64,000 bases of DNA, taken from Candidatus Moraniibacteriota bacterium (lineage in GTDB: Bacteria > Patescibacteriota > Minisyncoccia > Moranbacterales > UBA11712). The notes beneath the pieces are model-generated. The model was not told where the DNA came from. It did not search any database and worked only from the letters and a program-made list of their open reading frames with translations. Shown in pieces: positions 5,337-63,827 of the stretch. A program made the translations under genes and the position numbers. Where the stretch lies: contig JAUXSN010000039.1 in NCBI GenBank assembly GCA_030679895.1, forward strand, positions 34,128 through 98,127, written 5' to 3'. Position 1 is the stretch's first letter. Every line of letters starts with the position of its first letter.

Positions 5337-5362
5337 TTTTTCTAAAGCTTCGCCTTAATGAC

Positions 5363-5390
5363 GCTTCCCAACATCCGATGTTGGGAAGCG
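5363..5390. terminator. Perfect palindromic hairpin (cgcttcccaacatc|cgatgttgggaagcg) immediately after gene 4341-5336
   Basis: A 13-bp inverted repeat sits 27 nt after the stop codon. Its stem sequence CCCAAC..GTTGGG is related to the dispersed REP-like palindromes. Confidence 0.5.
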
Positions 5391-5841: not shown

Positions 5842-6408
5842 ATGAAAAATATAATCAAAAGTCTGGTGATTGTCTTCGCCGTCGCGGCGGTGGCAAGCGT
5901 TGCGACTTATGCTTACTTTTCAAGTCAAGCAACGGTAACAGGCAATACTTATTCTACTGGAACGCTAGAAATTAGAGTAAATGGGCAGCCTTCAATAGCT
6001 GGATTTACTGCATCAAATATGGCGCCTGGCGATTGTAAAGCAGGAGAATTTACAGTAATGAATTATGGAGCGCCTTGGTTTGGTGGCCCAAGCACATTAA
6101 CCGCTGAAGAGCTTGTTATAAGCACCAATAATTTTGGTGGCGATACGAGTGGTTTATGTAATGCGCTAACAGCTGAAATTCAGAACTGTGCAGGGCCATG
6201 CGAAACCGCATATGCTACCGGACCAGTAAACGCTGTAAGTGAGGAAGATCTGCTAATGTCATGGTTTTCAAGTGGATTGGCTGCTGGAAATTCTGAAATT
6301 ATAAAATACGATGTGTGCTTGCCAGATACAGGTTCTGCTCAAGATTCATTACAGGGCAAAACTTGTACATTTGACTTTGTAGTTGACGCATACAACCCAA
6401 AAAGATAA
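5842..6408 (+). CDS. TasA/camelysin-like secreted fibre subunit with SipW-cognate-type signal peptide
   Basis: The N-terminus MKNIIKSLVIVFAVAAVASVATYAYFSSQATVTGNTYSTGTLEI fits the A.F.D....N.F..GTL pattern of TasA/CalY signal regions. An AGGTG-like RBS lies upstream. A paralog is at 6505 and a SipW peptidase at 7178. Confidence 0.65.
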   Translation: MKNIIKSLVIVFAVAAVASVATYAYFSSQATVTGNTYSTGTLEIRVNGQPSIAGFTASNMAPGDCKAGEFTVMNYGAPWFGGPSTLTAEELVISTNNFGGDTSGLCNALTAEIQNCAGPCETAYATGPVNAVSEEDLLMSWFSSGLAAGNSEIIKYDVCLPDTGSAQDSLQGKTCTFDFVVDAYNPKR

Positions 6409-9795: not shown

Positions 9796-10871
9796 AAATG
9801 CTTTCAGAAAAAAAATTTGAAAATAGATTTTATATTTTTGGGCTCGCTATCTTGTTTTGTGGGTTGATGTTTTTCAGTTTTTCTGAAAAAGCCGAAGCAA
9901 AAACCGTGACTGACGGAAATCTTGCCATAACTTATAGCGATCCTTTGTTTGCAGTTACGAACGCGGTGCCGGGACAAACCTATTTTTCAGATATGACAGT
10001 GGAAAATTTGGGCGGAGCGGACAGAAAATTCCAATTTGAACTGAATATTGCGGCGAGTTCCAGCAATCTGACGGAAAGGCTTTTTCTCAAAATATACAGC
10101 CTTGACGAAATCGGCAAGGAATATTGCGAATACGGCTGCTTGGCAAACGAGGACATTAAGAGTCTTGACGGAGGCGAATTTGAAATAAAGACAATGCCTG
10201 GAAATTCCACGAAAAATTTCCGCTTCGCGCTGGCTTTTGATCCCGACGCGGGAAATGATTTTCAGAACGTGAGCGCCGGGTTTGATATGAAAATAGGATT
10301 TGAGGATGAATTTCAGGGAGTTACTGGCGGCGGAGGGGGAGGCAATGGAGCTACCGCGGCCGGAACAGCTCCGACGGGATTTTTGACATCGCTGTTTTCT
10401 GCCGTTTCCACGGGGACGACAGCCGGAGCAGAAACAGAAGGAGAAATGCCGCAAGGGCAGGAAGGCGAAGTTAAAGGTGAAGAAACAACGCCGGGACAAG
10501 TCGAGGGTATTTCAGTGTCATCCTGCCAAAGTTGGCCGAAATGGATTTGGGTTTTGATGCTGATTGCTTATTTCGCCGCGTTTTTGTGGCGGACATTTTC
10601 GAATTTATCGGGGCAGATTGAGAAGCGCGAAATGAGATGGGGATGGCAGGCAATTTTGGCAGGCGTGGCGTTTCTTGTCTGGTATTTCTTTGACAAGTGC
10701 CGTGAGTTTCAATGGTTTGTGATCATCGCTCTTGTCGGCGGCGCAGTGGTTTATCTTTTTTATCTTTATTTGTTCAGGAATAATATTCGCGAAGAGCACG
10801 CGGATATAGAAAGCGGATCCGGCCAAGAACCGCCGGAAAATCCAACTGATCAGGCGTCGCCGATTGTATAG
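9792..10871 (+). CDS. Membrane-anchored TasA-like beta-sandwich protein (possible fibre anchor)
   Basis: The start overlaps the upstream stop (ATGA). A signal-like N-terminus is followed by AVTNAVPGQTYFSDMTVENLG (TasA-body-like), a Gly-rich linker and three C-terminal TM helices. Confidence 0.45.
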   Translation: MKMLSEKKFENRFYIFGLAILFCGLMFFSFSEKAEAKTVTDGNLAITYSDPLFAVTNAVPGQTYFSDMTVENLGGADRKFQFELNIAASSSNLTERLFLKIYSLDEIGKEYCEYGCLANEDIKSLDGGEFEIKTMPGNSTKNFRFALAFDPDAGNDFQNVSAGFDMKIGFEDEFQGVTGGGGGGNGATAAGTAPTGFLTSLFSAVSTGTTAGAETEGEMPQGQEGEVKGEETTPGQVEGISVSSCQSWPKWIWVLMLIAYFAAFLWRTFSNLSGQIEKREMRWGWQAILAGVAFLVWYFFDKCREFQWFVIIALVGGAVVYLFYLYLFRNNIREEHADIESGSGQEPPENPTDQASPIV

Positions 10872-12592: not shown

Positions 12593-12622
12593 TTTCGCCA
12601 AGGTCGAACCTTGGCGGGAAAT
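12593..12622. repeat. Repeat family A copy 1: tttcgccaaggtcgaaccttggcgggaaat hairpin directly after a stop codon
   Basis: The stem is 8 bp (cgccaagg/ccttggcg). Copies at 14555-14584 and 17401-17431 carry a compensatory base change that preserves pairing. Confidence 0.7.
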
Positions 12623-12733: not shown

Positions 12734-12754
12734 CCCCAACATTCAATGTTGGGG
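12734..12754. repeat. REP-like palindrome ccccaacattcaatgttgggg
   Basis: A 10-bp inverted repeat belonging to the same family as the CCTAACATT(C/G)AATGTTAGGG copies at 15760 and 63808. Confidence 0.7.
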
Positions 12755-14554: not shown

Positions 14555-14584
14555 TTCGCTAAGGTTCGACCTTAGCGGGAAAAT
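14555..14584. repeat. Repeat family A copy 2 (cttcgctaaggttcgaccttagcgggaaaat)
   Basis: Lies 4 nt after the stop of 12827-14551. The stem cgctaagg/ccttagcg covaries with copy 1. Confidence 0.7.
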
Positions 14585-14664
14585 AGCCGAAAGAGTTCCG
14601 ACATGGGGTCGGGACTCTTTTTCTACTTGGAAACTCGGTTTCCAAGTAAATCGTCCTTGATTTT

Positions 14665-14683
14665 CCTAAAGTTAAGCTTTAGG
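14665..14683. repeat. REP-like palindrome cctaaagttaagctttagg
   Basis: CCTAA..TTAGG arms surround a 9-nt loop. The same family occurs at 39538/39561 with the loop in both orientations. Confidence 0.7.
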
Positions 14684-14687
14684 AATT

Positions 14688-15660: not shown

Positions 15661-15685
15661 GATATTCTTTTTGACATTAATTTTT

Positions 15686-15705
15686 CCTAAGTATTTAGCT
15701 CTAGG
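15686..15705. repeat. REP-like imperfect palindrome cctaagtatttagctctagg
   Basis: CCTAAG..CTAGG arms; directly abuts family-C copy 4. Confidence 0.5.
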
Positions 15706-15709
15706 AATC

Positions 15710-15759: not shown

Positions 15760-15779
15760 CCTAACATTCAATGTTAGGG
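15760..15779. repeat. REP palindrome cctaacattcaatgttaggg (plus adjacent half-copy aatgttagggtg)
   Basis: A perfect 9-bp inverted repeat with near-identical copies at 63808-63827 and 12734-12754. Confidence 0.75.
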
Positions 15780-23400: not shown

Positions 23401-24696
23401 ATGGGTCTAGATCATAAAACAATTTTCAGATTCGGTATCAGATCTCCCCACGAATGGGCGGTTGTTTTTCGCTTGGCGCTTCGCAATCTGCGCATGAATA
23501 AGATCCGAACCGCGCTTACGGTAATTGGGATTGTAATTGGGATTATGTCGGTGATAATAGTAATGGCCGGCGGAACCGGCCTCAAAAACTATGTTTTGGG
23601 GCAGGTCGATGTTTTTGGAACGGATTATATCCAGGTGGAGGTGAAGGTTCCCGGTGTTTCGGAAATGTCGTCGGAAAATATTTCCGGCAGAGGAACGGGT
23701 CTTGCCATCACAACGCTCAAAGAAAAAGATGCCGAAGCGGTCGCAAAAATTCCCAATGTCAGAACTTGGAGCGCGGGAAATATGGACCAGGAGCTGGTAA
23801 GCTATAGCAGCGTGAACAAAAGAGTGATGATCTTCGGCGTGAATCCCGCGTATGTCGAAATTGACCGCCAGATCCAGCCGGTTGAAGGAACCTTTTTCTC
23901 CGAGAGCGATGAAGCCGGAGCCGCCCAGGTGGCGGTTATCGGCGCCGGGGTTAAAAAAAGTTTTTTCGGAGAAGGGGATGCCGCGGGAAAAAATATCAAA
24001 ATAAAGGACCAAAATTATCGGGTCGTCGGAGTGCTCAAAGAAAGGGGAGCCGGCGGATTTTTCAATTTTGACGATGTTGTCTATATTCCCTTCAAAACGC
24101 TCAATAAAAAACTGCTCGGAATTGACTATGCCCAGTTCATCACGTTTAAGGTCAAAGATACGGCGCGCATGGAGGAAACAGCCGTTGATATCCGGGAAAC
24201 GATGCGGCGCGAGCATGATATAACTGATCCCGCGAAAGAAGATTTCATAGTTATGTCCGCGGCGGAAGGGAAAGATATGATCGACAAAGTTTTTGGGACG
24301 ATCAACTATCTGCTTTTGGCTCTCACCTCCATCTCTCTTTTGGTTGGGGGAGTTGGTATTATGAATGTCATGTATGTGGCCGTCACCGAGCGGACGCGCG
24401 AGATCGGGCTTCGCAAAGCGCTCGGCGCGACAAACTCGGGAGTTCTGCGGCAATTTCTTTTTGAAGCCGTTATTGTGACATTCATCGGCGGAGCGGTTGG
24501 AATTCTTTTCGGGGTGATTTCGACCTATCTTCTTAATAATTTTTTGATCCGGCTCGGATATATGCTTCAATTTTCCGTTCCCGCGAAATCCATCATCACC
24601 GCGGTCGGATTTTCCGTTTTCACCGGCCTCATTTTCGGCATCTATCCCGCGTGGAAAGCCTCGCAACTCTCGCCAATCGAAGCGTTGCGAAAATAA
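23401..24696 (+). CDS. ABC transporter permease, MacB/FtsX family (second copy)
   Basis: Same architecture as the first permease. The FtsX signature reads LLVGGVGIMNVMYVAVTERTREIGLRKALGA. Confidence 0.8.
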   Translation: MGLDHKTIFRFGIRSPHEWAVVFRLALRNLRMNKIRTALTVIGIVIGIMSVIIVMAGGTGLKNYVLGQVDVFGTDYIQVEVKVPGVSEMSSENISGRGTGLAITTLKEKDAEAVAKIPNVRTWSAGNMDQELVSYSSVNKRVMIFGVNPAYVEIDRQIQPVEGTFFSESDEAGAAQVAVIGAGVKKSFFGEGDAAGKNIKIKDQNYRVVGVLKERGAGGFFNFDDVVYIPFKTLNKKLLGIDYAQFITFKVKDTARMEETAVDIRETMRREHDITDPAKEDFIVMSAAEGKDMIDKVFGTINYLLLALTSISLLVGGVGIMNVMYVAVTERTREIGLRKALGATNSGVLRQFLFEAVIVTFIGGAVGILFGVISTYLLNNFLIRLGYMLQFSVPAKSIITAVGFSVFTGLIFGIYPAWKASQLSPIEALRK

Positions 24697-24736
24697 GCTT
24701 CCATCCTAAGATCCGATCTTAGGATGGAATAAATCT

Positions 24737-25402
24737 ATGCGAAAAGAGCGATTTTTTGAAGATCAATATTACCACATATTTAACAGAGGAACAGACAAGA
24801 GAAAAATATTTCTGGATGATTTTGATTATCGCCGCTTCTTACTTTCTATGCGGCTTATGAATGACGAAAAAGACGGTTTAATGATCCGATGGAGAGATTA
24901 TAAAAAAACTTATTCCAGTTCGACGGTCGAAGCTTTCCTAAGATCGGATCTTAGGAAAAGAAATTCACTGGTTGAAATTGTTTGTTTTTCTCTTCTTCCT
25001 AACCACTATCATTTCATTCTGAAACAGCTGGCAAGAAATGGAATTGAAAAGTTTATGCAAAGAATTGGAATAGGATATACGATGTATTTTAACAAAAAAT
25101 ATGATCGCAGCGGAGTTTTGTTTCAGGGAAAATGCAAATCTAGTCTTATCAAAGCGACTCATCACCTTCTTTACCTTTCTGTCTATGTGAATTGCAACGC
25201 GGAAGTGCACGGTATCGCGAAAGCTGAAAATTATCGTTGGAGCAGTTTTTCTAATTCTATAAATAGAAGCAAGGATAATATCTGCAACGGAAAAGTGATA
25301 TTTGATAATTTCAAGGAAAGTGAAGATTATAAAATTTACGCAAAGGAAAATGTAGAAGCGATGAAACAAAAAAAAGAGGACGAGAAATTAGTCTTGGAAT
25401 AG
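24737..25402 (+). CDS. REP-associated tyrosine transposase (RAYT; IS200-like HuH Y1 transposase, COG1943-like)
   Basis: YYHIFNRGTDKRKIFLDDFDYRRFL matches the COG1943 N-terminus. LLPNHYHFIL carries the HuH motif. The downstream GYTMYFNKKYDRSGVLFQGKCKS contains the candidate catalytic Tyr and an RxG..Q motif. Confidence 0.7.
   Translation: MRKERFFEDQYYHIFNRGTDKRKIFLDDFDYRRFLLSMRLMNDEKDGLMIRWRDYKKTYSSSTVEAFLRSDLRKRNSLVEIVCFSLLPNHYHFILKQLARNGIEKFMQRIGIGYTMYFNKKYDRSGVLFQGKCKSSLIKATHHLLYLSVYVNCNAEVHGIAKAENYRWSSFSNSINRSKDNICNGKVIFDNFKESEDYKIYAKENVEAMKQKKEDEKLVLE
24937..24955. repeat. REP palindrome cctaagatcggatcttagg located in-frame inside the RAYT ORF
   Basis: The 25-nt string agctttcctaagatcggatcttagg is identical to the copy at 25401-25425. 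It encodes AFLRSDLRK within an extra segment of about 25 aa, relative to typical COG1943 proteins, between the N-terminal motif and HuH. Confidence 0.65.
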
Positions 25403-25608
25403 CTTTCCTAAGATCGGATCTTAGGATGGAATTTGCCAACAAAAAAAGCCTTCTTTCGAAGCGCTTGAAAAATAAAGATGTGATCCGGAAGAGCCTCATG
25501 GCTCTCCCGGATCGGAACTGCAAGACAGGAAGGATTTTGAGATGTTATCTCTGCCCGGAAGTCGGTTCTCCGGAAAGATTCCTTACCGTCTTTTACTTCG
25601 GCAGGGTG

Positions 25609-26034
25609 TTACTGCAGCATGACCTCGAAGGGAACCGCCGTCGCTGTCAGGAGAGCGTAGGCGGGGGTGCCCCGGGAGGTCGCGATGATGGCCATGCAGG
25701 TCCGGGGATCAAAGATGGCGCCTTTTGCCTTCTTAGCATCGGCGAAATCCTGGATTTCCCAGGGGATCCCCTTGCAGAACTCGGCGGGCAGAGCCTGATC
25801 GGCGCGCTTTTTTTGCCCATAGTCCGCTTCCGCCAGCAGGGTATTGTTGGCCGGATGGAAATGGTAGACGCCACGTGGCGACCCCAAATTTACCTTGATC
25901 GTGAACTCATCCATCCGCTGCCCCGCCGGCATTGCCAGCATACGTGGGCTTTTTTCTTTTCCGCACTGGGGGACGTAACCCATGAGCTCGATGGGTGCCG
26001 CCCTCGGGTCTGCCAAAGGGTGCTGGTTGAACAT
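25609..26034 (-). CDS. Hypothetical protein encoded in a GC-rich (foreign-looking) segment
   Basis: A 141-aa ORF with a GGAGG RBS 7 nt upstream of its ATG (minus strand). Its codon usage and GC are clearly higher than in neighbouring genes. I recognised no family. Confidence 0.4.
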   Translation of the reverse strand: MFNQHPLADPRAAPIELMGYVPQCGKEKSPRMLAMPAGQRMDEFTIKVNLGSPRGVYHFHPANNTLLAEADYGQKKRADQALPAEFCKGIPWEIQDFADAKKAKGAIFDPRTCMAIIATSRGTPAYALLTATAVPFEVMLQ

Positions 26035-26847
26035 AGAAACCTCCGTTAAGCGGTGGTTGTTTTTCGCGCAAGTGAAGGCGGGACACGCTAGCCTTCTCTC
26101 GCACAGCCATAGCCGCGTACATATCGGGGAATAGATTTTTTAGGTACTTCTCCTCCTTTGTGATGGGTTGATATTTGTCCCCGTCTGCCATCTCTTTAGA
26201 AAATTATAACAAAAATAAAAAAAATACACAATTATTTCCCGTATAGAACCATTTGGAACTCTAAAATTAAAAACCCCAGGCAAGTGAGCTTGGATGGAAT
26301 GCGGGGCGGCATCCACAAGACATCACTCGCCTGGGGCCAGCCAGGAGGAAGGTGAAACATGGCCTCCGAGGTAAGTTTTTTCTAATATCGATCTTAGAAC
26401 AGCCTCGAACGCATCTAAAAATTTTAGACCTTTCTGCTTCATAAAGAACAAATATTGATCATGTAAAAAGGATCCACGGGCGGTCTAGGCTCCAAAACAA
26501 AAAAATGTATTGGTGGCGCGGAGTTGAAGCGTCGTTTGGCGAATCGCTCGACCATGCATGGTGTCGGGTTCTCCCCGGAGCAACTCCGACCATGAAATTG
26601 CCCAAAAAGGCGCAAATAATGGCCTTCTTAGCCGGACGGCGCATTTTCACCCTCCGCGTTGCCGTTTCTCCTTTTCCACCCGTGGATTTTGGATATTAAC
26701 AAAATTTTGTAAACTTGTCAAATTTAAAAAAGCCCAGGAAACTGCTATTGACGGGGGATAACATTCCTGCTACAATTTAAAGTTAAAAAATTAAGAAGAA
26801 AGCGTATTACTAAACATATAAATATTTACCTTATTTAAAGCAAATTT

Positions 26848-29036: not shown

Positions 29037-29268
29037 TGATTGCCGGCTTGGAACTTTTTCCAAGCCTTTAAATCCTCATAAATGAGGTGGAAACAGTTTT
29101 TTTAAAAACTGAATACGTGAATAAATGAACAAATTCTCCCCGCCAAAGTGGCGGAGGAGGATTGAGTATAAGTCAAACCATGGCTCCGCCTGCGGCGGAT
29201 GCCTAAAAAATTTCTTGCGACTCGTTAGTTTTTCCAAAAAGAAAACAAAAGCAAGGTTTTTCGCAGAA

Positions 29269-39407: not shown

Positions 39408-39537
39408 TACCATGTTCGAGGTGAAATCTCGACAAACCAGAAGGGTACCGGAATAGCGGACCCTTCTTTTCTTTATCAATTTTGATTTTTTTGATGAGAT
39501 GGGGTAATATGAAAATACTAAAAGTGCCAAGAGTTAT

Positions 39538-39579
39538 CCTAAAGTTTAGCTTTAGGAGCGCCTAAAGCTAAACTTTAGG
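39538..39579. repeat. REP doublet: cctaaagtttagctttagg + agcg + cctaaagctaaactttagg (loops in opposite orientation)
   Basis: Two 19-bp CCTAA..TTAGG palindromes lie 4 nt apart with reverse-complementary loops, a BIME-like arrangement just upstream of rfbC. Confidence 0.7.
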
Positions 39580-39587
39580 ATAAAAAG

Positions 39588-63807: not shown

Positions 63808-63827
63808 CCTAACATTGAATGTTAGGG
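63808..63827. repeat. REP palindrome cctaacattgaatgttaggg
   Basis: A perfect 9-bp inverted repeat. Compared with the copy at 15760 the loop is inverted (C/G centre), i.e. the opposite orientation. Confidence 0.75.

Follow-up and report, generated by a model that had tools for sequence, protein, structure and literature searches.

A putative REPtron-like unit in a Patescibacteria genome: a Y1 HUH protein gene with cognate 21-nt palindromes at both ends and within its reading frame

The best-studied combination of a long-lived, vertically inherited replicator with a domesticated transposase in bacteria is that of the repetitive extragenic palindromic (REP) sequences and the REP-associated tyrosine transposases (RAYTs). 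To our knowledge, descriptions of such REP/RAYT systems are confined almost entirely to Proteobacteria, Cyanobacteria and Bacteroidetes. The genomes of the Patescibacteria or candidate phyla radiation (CPR) have a size of about 1 Mb and are thought to be under strong streamlining. Here, we describe a gene located at positions 24737..25402 (plus strand) of a 64-kb stretch of DNA (contig JAUXSN010000039.1; in the following called the window) from a metagenome-assembled genome (MAG) of this group. The gene encodes a class-2 RAYT-like Y1 HUH protein of 221 aa and is accompanied by three copies of a short perfect palindrome, one at either end and one in frame within the coding sequence (CDS). Taken together, the data presented below make it probable that gene and palindrome form a REPtron-like unit, belonging to a CPR-wide clade of RAYT-like class-2 Y1 HUH nucleases or transferases acting on single-stranded DNA (ssDNA).

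In canonical REPs, the hairpin foot is marked by a 5' GT[AG]G tetranucleotide, and in subclass 2.4 of the TnpA-Y1 proteins, corresponding to RAYT group 4, REPs are also present inside the tnpA-REP gene, the frame of which they leave unbroken (Quentin et al. 2018, PMC6006769). No adjacent REP-like hairpins were found for genes of subclass 2.1, some of which have terminal inverted repeats, GGGGWSAS (Quentin 2018, PMC6006769; Di Nocera 2013, PMC3733652). The flanking repeats of RAYT groups 1 and 4 are of low copy number, with 12-14 occurrences per replicon. Palindromes inserted in frame into other genes are also on record, namely the Rickettsia palindromic elements (RPEs) and the GTAG/CGTC REPs (PMC3733652). 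A full-text search of the literature on RAYT, REP or REP doublets forming hairpins (REPINs) in combination with CPR names did not yield a description of such a system, but only 'RayT' labels on JGI proteins. This agrees with an earlier reading of the window by a model that saw the letters and their translations (the sequence-only reading), which was not aware of REP/RAYT systems in CPR-like bacteria.

The gene product shows 100% identity with the hypothetical protein Q8L09_03660 of a Candidatus Moranbacteria MAG, a taxon of the Parcubacteria group within the Patescibacteria group. Its assignment is based on the open reading frame (ORF), on homologues, on an AlphaFold2 (AF2) model searched with Foldseek, and on scores against hidden Markov models (HMMs). 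In an alignment of 142 homologues, the HuH motif corresponds to N89-H90-Y91-H92 (codons 25001..25012, plus strand) and the Tyr motif to Y150-V-N-C-N154 (25184..25198, plus strand, with the Y150 codon at 25184-25186). Residues N89, H90, Y150 and N154 are invariant in 142 of the 142 sequences, and H92 is present in 141 of them. In the AF2 model of the 221-aa protein (pLDDT 87) the HuH residues are placed on strand 90-97 and Y150 on helix 141-152, which follows the last core strand; the C-terminal tail is modelled as a single long helix. When this model was compared with the PDB by Foldseek, the top fold was 4er8_A, the E. coli RAYT bound to a REP hairpin (E 2.9e-6, target-normalised TM 0.62), followed by 2vjv, 2a6m and 2xma, that is by the IS608 and ISDra2 TnpA proteins. 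Sequence searches of the PDB with the protein or with a 25-sequence profile gave no meaningful match.

The Pfam model Y1_Tnp (PF01797), which the sequence-only reading had proposed as a check, gave a score of 21.6 bits for the window protein against a gathering cut-off of 23, whereas ten out of ten diverse homologues scored above the cut-off (24.8-40.8 bits), with matches that reach position 119/121 and span the Tyr helix. The homologues share the motif set NH[FY]H, L-F-Q-G, Y-[IV]-[NH]-x-N and S-S (n=142). Among these 142 sequences, F (76) or Y (64) is found within the HuH motif, the next motif is conserved as F (130) and Q (131), the Tyr is followed by I (80) or V (58), by N (83) or H (55) and by L (84), and the serine pair is S (130) and S (130). 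A proline after the motif N is present in 61 homologues; the window protein has A155 at this place. Judged by its Y---N motif, the protein is a Y1 HUH enzyme of class 2 of the TnpA-Y1 family. Among the subclasses it most closely resembles subclass 2.1 (RAYT group 1, TIRYT), a placement made with the published motif table and without a tree.

The repeat unit at the gene is a perfect palindrome of 21 nt, TCCTAAGATC-N-GATCTTAGGA, with arms of 10 nt around one central nucleotide (10+1+10). At the 5' end of the gene it is part of a longer perfect palindrome, TTCCATCCTAAGATC-C-GATCTTAGGATGGAA (24699..24729; 31 nt, 15+1+15; palindromes are given without strand throughout), which begins 3 nt past the stop codon of the FtsX/MacB permease gene located upstream; a further 7 nt separate its end from the ATG. 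The right arm of this palindrome has AGGA/GGA at the place expected for a Shine-Dalgarno sequence, and the predicted RNA fold has a free energy of -19.8 kcal/mol (z -5.8). The 3' palindrome, TCCTAAGATC-G-GATCTTAGGA (25406..25426; 10+1+10), starts 3 nt past the stop codon. The third copy, TTTCCTAAGATC-G-GATCTTAGGAAA (24934..24958; 12+1+12), lies inside the CDS at a position referred to below as site 1. Its 21-nt core (24936-24956) forms codons 67-73; the copy as a whole is read in frame as TTC CTA AGA TCG GAT CTT AGG AAA, corresponding to F67-L-R-S-D-L-R-K74.

Sequence identity extends beyond the palindromes themselves. AGCTT precedes all three copies (including 24696-24700) in the genome of the window only, and TGGAA follows both the 5' and the 3' palindrome, so that the surroundings of the three copies read AGCTT(CCA)-TCCTAAG... 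on one side and ...CTTAGGA-TGGAA or -AAAG on the other. AGCTT and the in-gene palindrome together form a stretch of 26 nt (24931..24956, plus strand) that is identical to 25401-25426. Within the gene, this extension leads to Ala at codon 66 in the window and to Thr in four relatives. The shared AGCTT and the 26-nt identity are traces of recent sequence copying between these positions. The sequence-only reading had described a 221-aa Y1 protein with HuH and Tyr regions between two perfect palindromes, and both the protein and the flanking palindromes stand as described; the in-CDS copy had been missed. It had also noted opposite loops, which is correct for the window, where the loop centres are C (5') and G (3') and hence inverted, the perfect palindrome having no other orientation mark. 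As a rule this does not hold: in the family the loop orientations of matched copies are close to 1:1, with 27 direct and 24 inverted pairs for upstream versus downstream copies and 35 and 36 for upstream versus in-gene copies.

Related loci were then used to ask how closely palindrome and gene belong together. The family is very large in CPR, with more than 1400 database matches to the Y1 protein. A relative is encoded by 524 of the first 600 pattern matches in contigs representing one genome per species. We collected 159 related loci from genomes and metagenomes (numbered with the prefix L), of which 142 have both flanks and 135 make up the non-redundant set; those kept from the one-genome-per-species contigs are almost all from Patescibacteria MAGs. 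Flanking palindromes were counted if perfect, with a stem of at least 8 and located within 120 nt. By this measure, 98 of the 142 loci have a palindrome upstream and 72 have one downstream. Upstream and downstream palindromes are the same in 49 loci, compared to 0.8 after permutation of the 135 non-redundant loci, and the in-gene palindrome matches the flanks in 62 of the 78 loci having both, compared to 1.8 after the same permutation. The palindrome sequence thus varies between loci and agrees within a locus. Chance or an assembly artefact has next to no probability as an explanation. MAG assemblies can in principle collapse repeats, and nothing else speaks for it; the pattern counts are far above those of shuffled sequences, and about 135 independent loci, taken from many assemblies and with intact ORFs, show the same architecture.

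In close Moranbacteria relatives the register of site 1 is kept while the palindrome is altered, and the flanks are altered to match in a compensatory manner. The window, L163 and L161 encode FLRSDLRK with TCCTAAGATC.GATCTTAGGA, and in L161 both flanks carry the same C variant. The corresponding peptides and palindromes are FLRLGLRK with TCCTAAGACTCGGTCTTAGGA in L081, FLRSDLKK with TTTTTAAGATC.GATCTTAAAAA in L082, FLRCHLR with TCCTAAGATG.CATCTTAGGA in L084, FPRLSLGK with TTCCAAGACT.AGTCTTGGAA in L001 and L086, FQTLNVWK with TCCAAACATT.AATGTTTGGA in L087, and FLTLNVRK with TCCTAACATT.AATGTTAGGA in L089, the last being the class-C palindrome found elsewhere in the window (see below). Thus, each gene lineage has a palindrome type of its own, and the flanks and the in-gene sites change together. 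In three orthologues of 78-79% identity, seven of the seven core palindrome codons are identical, compared to 63 of 143 (44%) of the other codons with a conserved amino acid. A strand-specific wobble test, in which G-T and A-C mismatches in imperfect stems were compared, gave 9 versus 3 for the flanks and 3 versus 10 for the in-gene copies, numbers too small to point to either strand.

The in-gene copies cluster at two positions of the protein alignment. Site 1 corresponds to aa 62-74 of the window protein, at the end of a helical insert that separates the N-terminal strand/helix from the HuH strands. Site 2 (aa 158-168) directly follows the Tyr helix, and its typical peptide is QLGGSASKLV, encoded by CAACTTGG...CCAAGTTG. 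A few copies are found at the C-terminus, and none clusters between HuH and Y. The window gene has a copy at site 1 only. In many homologues from Parcubacteria (L003, L005, L013, L014, L020, L026 and others) the peptide (Q/K)LGG(S/x)(A/T)SK(L) is present twice, at sites 1 and 2, and it always represents one frame of ACTTGG...CCAAGT; copies in other genes are read in various frames. Furthermore, a half-palindrome (e.g. TTTCCTAAGATC or ATCCTAAGATC) was seen doubled directly before the full flanking palindrome in L084 (~6195-6235, 5') and in L161 (~10660-10700, 3'), where it lengthens the ORF by three codons. These duplicated half-palindromes may be footprints of copying events.

Several such pairs of gene and palindrome are present per genome. 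Relatives have 4-5 Y1 paralogues per genome with about 50-60% identity to each other. Four loci of one Moranbacteria species, about 76 kb in total, contain five paralogues, each with a palindrome type of its own. In the same 76 kb, singlets follow stop codons, inverted doublets stand right before start codons, and the types of two of the paralogues also occur at other places. Sister palindromes are thus located in intergenic DNA, either singly behind stop codons or as inverted doublets ahead of start codons. One copy lies in a gene for cysteinyl-tRNA synthetase (CysRS): at L167 13130-13154, the palindrome of the paralogue P0037 is inserted in frame and adds the peptide FPRLSLG, which corresponds to an exact 7-residue gap in three orthologues and is located in the linker before the anticodon-binding domain. 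Judged from the alignment, this case provides the best evidence in our data for a discrete insertion of the 21-nt unit.

The gene, for its part, appears to stay where it is. The three orthologues used for the codon comparison (78-79% identity) have it at the same site, with a MacB-type ABC transporter operon upstream and a DUF4012 gene downstream, which indicates vertical inheritance at a constant chromosomal position. Orthologous intergenic regions, which were aligned in search of the unit boundaries, were not alignable at this divergence. The conserved site bears on the possibility of an autonomous insertion sequence (IS) of the IS200/IS605 type, in which the flanking hairpins would mark the left end and the right end of a unit of 730 bp that transposes as a whole. 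Such an element would be in line with a protein of the Y1_Tnp superfamily for which the IS608 and ISDra2 transposases are the next-best folds, with the hairpin at each end, and with a GC content of the gene of 33-36%, which is below that of its neighbours. Nevertheless, we regard this explanation as very unlikely because of the conserved synteny, because identical copies are missing within genomes, where the paralogues are only about 50-60% identical, because the Y motif is Y---N and not Y---Q, and because both ends are the same perfect palindrome instead of distinct imperfect left and right ends. There is also no tnpB, and the 64-kb window contains only one Y1 gene.

The window contains further palindromes of the same style. 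CCTAA-N9-TTAGG occurs 8 times (0.46 expected) and CCYAA-N9-TTRGG 10 times (0.19 expected), three of the copies being those at the Y1 gene itself. The palindromes away from the gene are all intergenic and fall into several sequence classes (B, C, D and E). Class B, CCTAAAGYTWARCTTTAGG, comprises a palindrome at 14663..14685 (TTCCTAAAG-TTAAG-CTTTAGGAA), an imperfect class-B-like one at 15685..15706 (TCCTAAGTATTTAGCTCTAGGA, read from the sequence), and a REPIN-like inverted doublet of two class-B palindromes at 39534..39583. Class C, CCYAACATT-S-AATGTTRGG, is found at 12734..12754 (CCCCAACATT-C-AATGTTGGGG, with CCCAA arms), at 15760..15778 (CCTAACATT-C-AATGTTAGG) and at 63808..63826 (CCTAACATT-G-AATGTTAGG), the last two being followed by GGGTAA; a variant lies 25 nt after a stop codon at 5362..5390 (CGCTTCCCAACATC-C-GATGTTGGGAAGCG). 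The two members of class D, CGCYAAGGT-N3-ACCTTRGCG, are each located 5 nt after a stop codon, at 12596..12616 (CGCCAAGGT-CGA-ACCTTGGCG) and 14557..14577 (CGCTAAGGT-TCG-ACCTTAGCG). Class E, CTTGGAA..TTCCAAG, is represented at 14624..14648 (TACTTGGAAAC-TCG-GTTTCCAAGTA) and by an E-like palindrome 8 nt after a stop codon at 29045..29066 (GGCTTGGAA-CTTT-TTCCAAGCC).

Look-alikes of these palindromes flank Y1 genes elsewhere. This is the case for the palindrome at 12596 (L058 and L062), at 14624 (L003 and L046), at 14663 (L002 and L166) and at 5362 (paralogue P0040 in L165), the last of which also has look-alikes in doublets of L163 and L167. The core of the palindrome at 15760 equals the one that flanks, and lies inside, the Y1 gene of L089. 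The sequence-only reading had assumed a single REP family dispersed at more than 10 sites. The dispersed copies do exist; their number is 8 by the strict or 10 by the relaxed pattern plus the imperfect one, the three at the gene included. Two of the copies (5367 and 12735) have CCCAA and not CCTAA arms. The list had also omitted four intergenic palindromes (12596, 14557, 14624 and 29045) that are similar in style but differ in their arms. The single family has to be replaced by several sub-families, of which the GATC type is present only at the gene and look-alikes of others bracket paralogues in other Moranbacteria.

The positions of these palindromes relative to genes lead to the main rival of our interpretation, and it does account for them. 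The palindromes could be cis-elements of the host that are not mobilised by the Y1 protein, such as protectors of mRNA 3' ends after stop codons, hairpins that mask or provide the Shine-Dalgarno sequence ahead of start codons, or protein-binding sites, which are kept alike by selection and gene conversion; the Y1 protein would then be a domesticated nuclease with another job at these sites or would merely be regulated by them. The singlets are located 3-26 nt past stop codons, several of those in the window at 5-8 nt. Inverted doublets with spacers of 1-5 nt, often GCG, were observed at 39534-39583 of the window, in L163 (18352-18400), in L165 (8565-8609) and in L167 (6915-6959 and 18092-18136); they end 0-9 nt before the start codons of rmlC, Pth, TIM and HrcA, with the last arm, ...TAGGA, at the Shine-Dalgarno place. 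These doublets may serve translational control or may have been exapted as ribosome-binding sites. The doublet of the window, which has a near-identical match at L167 6915-6959, consists of 23-bp arms with 100% complementarity and a 4-nt spacer and ends 4 nt before the ATG of rmlC (39588); its predicted RNA fold (-36.5 kcal/mol, z -8.5) illustrates that the hairpins are very stable. The synteny and vertical inheritance of the Y1 gene would likewise suit host elements, as would the rarity of cognate copies away from the gene and the absence of insertion polymorphism (see below). No sigma-70-like promoter was detected in the 40-nt gap that contains the 5' palindrome, between the upstream gene and the Y1 gene, and therefore the Y1 gene may be transcribed by read-through from the transporter operon. 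Host elements alone would, however, leave unexplained why the palindrome type at both ends and in the ORF differs from one Y1 paralogue to the next, why the CysRS gene has acquired a discrete insertion of seven codons, and why the loops are flipped in a 1:1 ratio; in addition, the protein has the fold and the intact catalytic residues of a hairpin-cutting enzyme. On balance, we consider the cis-element explanation rather unlikely.

A reading of the palindromes as plain terminators was rejected, as canonical GC-rich, T-tailed terminators are located separately in the same spacers. Four of these terminator hairpins (10909, 14689, 14720 on the minus strand, and 15711) have a common left arm, AAGAAAAACARCCCC (4 matches compared to 0.03 expected), and this arm is a second, terminator-type repeated motif of the intergenic regions. 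As to the base composition around the gene, the Y1 gene has a GC content of 33-39% (window 24650-25550) compared to 43-51% in the upstream ABC-transporter genes. Directly after the 3' palindrome, a GC-rich island extends over 25430-26200; its GC content is 52-60%, while the window has 43% and the Y1 gene 33-36%. Two ORFs of the minus strand are located in it, 25609..26034 (141 aa) and, in a different frame, 25907..26191 (94 aa), which may be one frameshifted gene. Pfam and Rfam searches gave no matches in this island, an Rfam search of the window including the island found two tRNAs and nothing else, and L163 and L161, although otherwise syntenic, lack a conserved counterpart of the segment.

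For the REPtron-like system that we favour, the following course of events can be proposed by analogy to IS608 TnpA and the E. coli RAYT. The 21-nt palindrome would fold into a hairpin as ssDNA. The Y1 protein would bind its hairpin on ssDNA, cut at the foot of the hairpin by means of Tyr150 and a metal bound by HuH, and then rejoin the DNA, by which the 21-nt unit would be moved or copied. As the unit is symmetric, it could be used on either strand and could land in either orientation, which would explain the ratio of about 1:1 between direct and inverted loops. Its survival inside ORFs could be explained by its length of seven codons with open frames. The enzyme would act mostly in cis, so that its own gene and the gene borders would be the main sites of landing and exchange, and the copies at the gene would be kept alike by repeated replacement or short-tract conversion. 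Judged from the sequences, an enzyme with a cognate repeat, vertical inheritance, several pairs per genome and a low copy number of the repeat fits a REPtron-like system.

A number of results argue against this interpretation. The NCBIfam equivalog model NF047646 (REP_Tyr_transpos) gave 25 bits for the window protein at a cut-off of 80, and ten homologues, with 21-60 bits, are also below this cut-off. None of the three copies at the gene has a GT[AG]G foot (GTAG or GTGG) beside it. Within the 64-kb window, the GATC-core palindrome of the gene has no further copy even if 3 mismatches are allowed. No paralogue from the MAG of the window to which class C or the other palindrome classes could belong was present in the window or, going by the Q8L09 locus tag, among the best 120 matches. 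In 1.63 Mb of flanks of the 142 loci, only 30 cognate copies occur elsewhere, 25 of them intergenic and 5 in other ORFs, a density about 40 times below that inside the Y1 ORFs. Among 28 locus pairs (megablast, at least 2 kb with at least 85% identity), 4 indels were observed, none with a palindrome, and L160, L161 and L162, which are 99.9-100% identical, show no polymorphism for the presence or absence of palindromes. Finally, the loop that contains site 1 has 51 aa with the palindrome and 47 aa without it, and the one that contains site 2 has 17 aa in both cases.

In terms of the earlier proposal of a complete REP/RAYT unit, the kind of system holds, given a Y1 HUH protein with the fold of 4er8, cognate flanks and scattered related palindromes, while a canonical RAYT does not: by HMM score, the protein is not one. 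The loop lengths have a further consequence. Simple recent insertion of the in-gene copies into the Y1 gene was rejected, as these lengths barely differ; for the copy in the CysRS gene, insertion does apply. Since, in addition, homologues without a perfect palindrome often retain a decayed version of the peptide, the in-gene copies are old features that turn over in place.

The persistence of these copies raises the question of whether they have a function of their own. In one scenario they are self-targets, i.e. the enzyme binds or nicks the hairpins in its own gene or mRNA and thereby regulates, rearranges or inactivates the gene. HUH Rep proteins with an origin hairpin inside the rep gene, as in phiX174 gene A and the pT181 family, provide a likeness for this. 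It would agree with the two fixed in-frame positions, always in the same frame and matched to the flanks in 62 of 78 loci, with the near absence of copies from other ORFs (5 cases in 1.63 Mb), with loop lengths that are equal with or without a perfect palindrome, and with a nucleotide-level conservation that exceeds what the peptide would need. However, many members in which one or both in-gene copies are missing or decayed keep their catalytic motifs intact, and a preference for cis action combined with replacement in situ accounts for the same data. We therefore hold functional self-targeting to be improbable. A broader version, in which the in-gene palindromes are a maintained functional part of the REPtron-like system, is doubtful but somewhat more likely: the recognition hairpin would be kept in frame at two fixed places throughout the CPR radiation, for self-regulation or self-directed processing of DNA, and would co-evolve with the flanks as one unit, an ancient pair of an enzyme and a 21-nt replicator. 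If this were true, such a pair would have persisted in the smallest bacterial genomes.

The results suggest that a system analogous to REP/RAYT is spread across the Patescibacteria despite their reduced genomes. It is distinguished by a minimal symmetric unit of 21 nt, by several gene-palindrome pairs per genome, and by a tight, co-varying coupling of the palindromes at the ends of the gene and inside it. The many natural pairs of enzyme and hairpin should provide a compact test system for how Y1 nucleases read hairpins. They also bear on whether RAYT group-1-like proteins have DNA partners, and on the reasons for which reduced genomes tolerate such repeats, or make use of them, at stop codons and ribosome-binding sites.

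When compared with known systems, the closest match by structure is the E. coli TnpA-REP/RAYT with its REPs and bacterial interspersed mosaic elements (BIMEs) (4ER8; subclasses 2.2 and 2.5; RAYT groups 2 and 3), likewise a Y1 HUH enzyme. As in the E. coli REPtron, the gene is bracketed by a cognate hairpin repeat, intergenic repeats of the same style occur, partly as REPIN-like inverted doublets, each gene type has its own repeat type, and inheritance is vertical. Unlike the E. coli RAYT, the window protein shares only 12% identity with it over the structural alignment and is below the NCBIfam equivalog cut-off. The palindromes of the window type differ from E. coli REPs in that they are short (21 nt) and perfect, with a centre of 1-3 nt, no GT[AG]G foot and no bulges. 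Further differences from the E. coli REPtron are the low copy number, the 4-5 paralogues per genome in relatives, the random orientation of the flanks and the copies inside the gene. With the TnpA proteins of IS200/IS605 elements (IS608, ISDra2) the protein shares the fold and the HuH/Tyr residues, and the recognition of hairpins on ssDNA is a feature of these IS. The Y---Q motif, the distinct imperfect left and right hairpins, the many identical copies and the frequent tnpB of IS200/IS605 were not seen for the window gene.

The RPEs of Rickettsia and intragenic REPs (PMC3733652) are likewise short palindromes located in frame in coding genes, to which they add a peptide, as in the case of FPRLSLG in CysRS. 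In contrast to the CPR family, RPEs are longer, and the preferred ORF of the CPR family is that of the presumed mobilising enzyme itself. We know of no dedicated nuclease gene that carries RPEs. In-frame repeats within the gene, symmetric ('double foot') REPs and flanking repeats of low copy number are shared with subclass 2.4 (RAYT group 4). In the CPR family, however, the copies precede HuH (aa 67-74) and, in relatives, follow Y, both positions being fixed and the length constant. The motifs also differ, with NH[IFV]H / WQ / YIxNNP in subclass 2.4 and NH[FY]H / FQ / Y[IV][NH]xN in the CPR family, and subclass 2.4 is found in Cyanobacteria, Bacteroidetes and others, not in CPR. In terms of the motif table only, the best agreement is with subclass 2.1 (RAYT group 1, TIRYT), namely NH[YF]H, FQ instead of WQ, Y[IV]HLNP (in many members) and SS after the core. 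Proteins of subclass 2.1 are also long and have a C-terminal tail, and genomes contain on average about two copies, which are about 49% identical to each other; the C-terminal domain described there is helix-turn-helix-like, unlike the one long helix modelled for the window protein.

Overall, the pairing of the REP/RAYT type and the presence of REPs within a RAYT gene (subclass 2.4) are already known. The CPR family departs from these precedents in its host, in its clade, which is subclass-2.1-like and had no known partner DNA, and in its repeat, a minimal perfect unit of 21 nt that lacks a GT[AG]G foot. It also differs in that the in-gene copies keep to two fixed positions, both outside the interval from HuH to Y, and in that the palindromes of each locus co-vary tightly.

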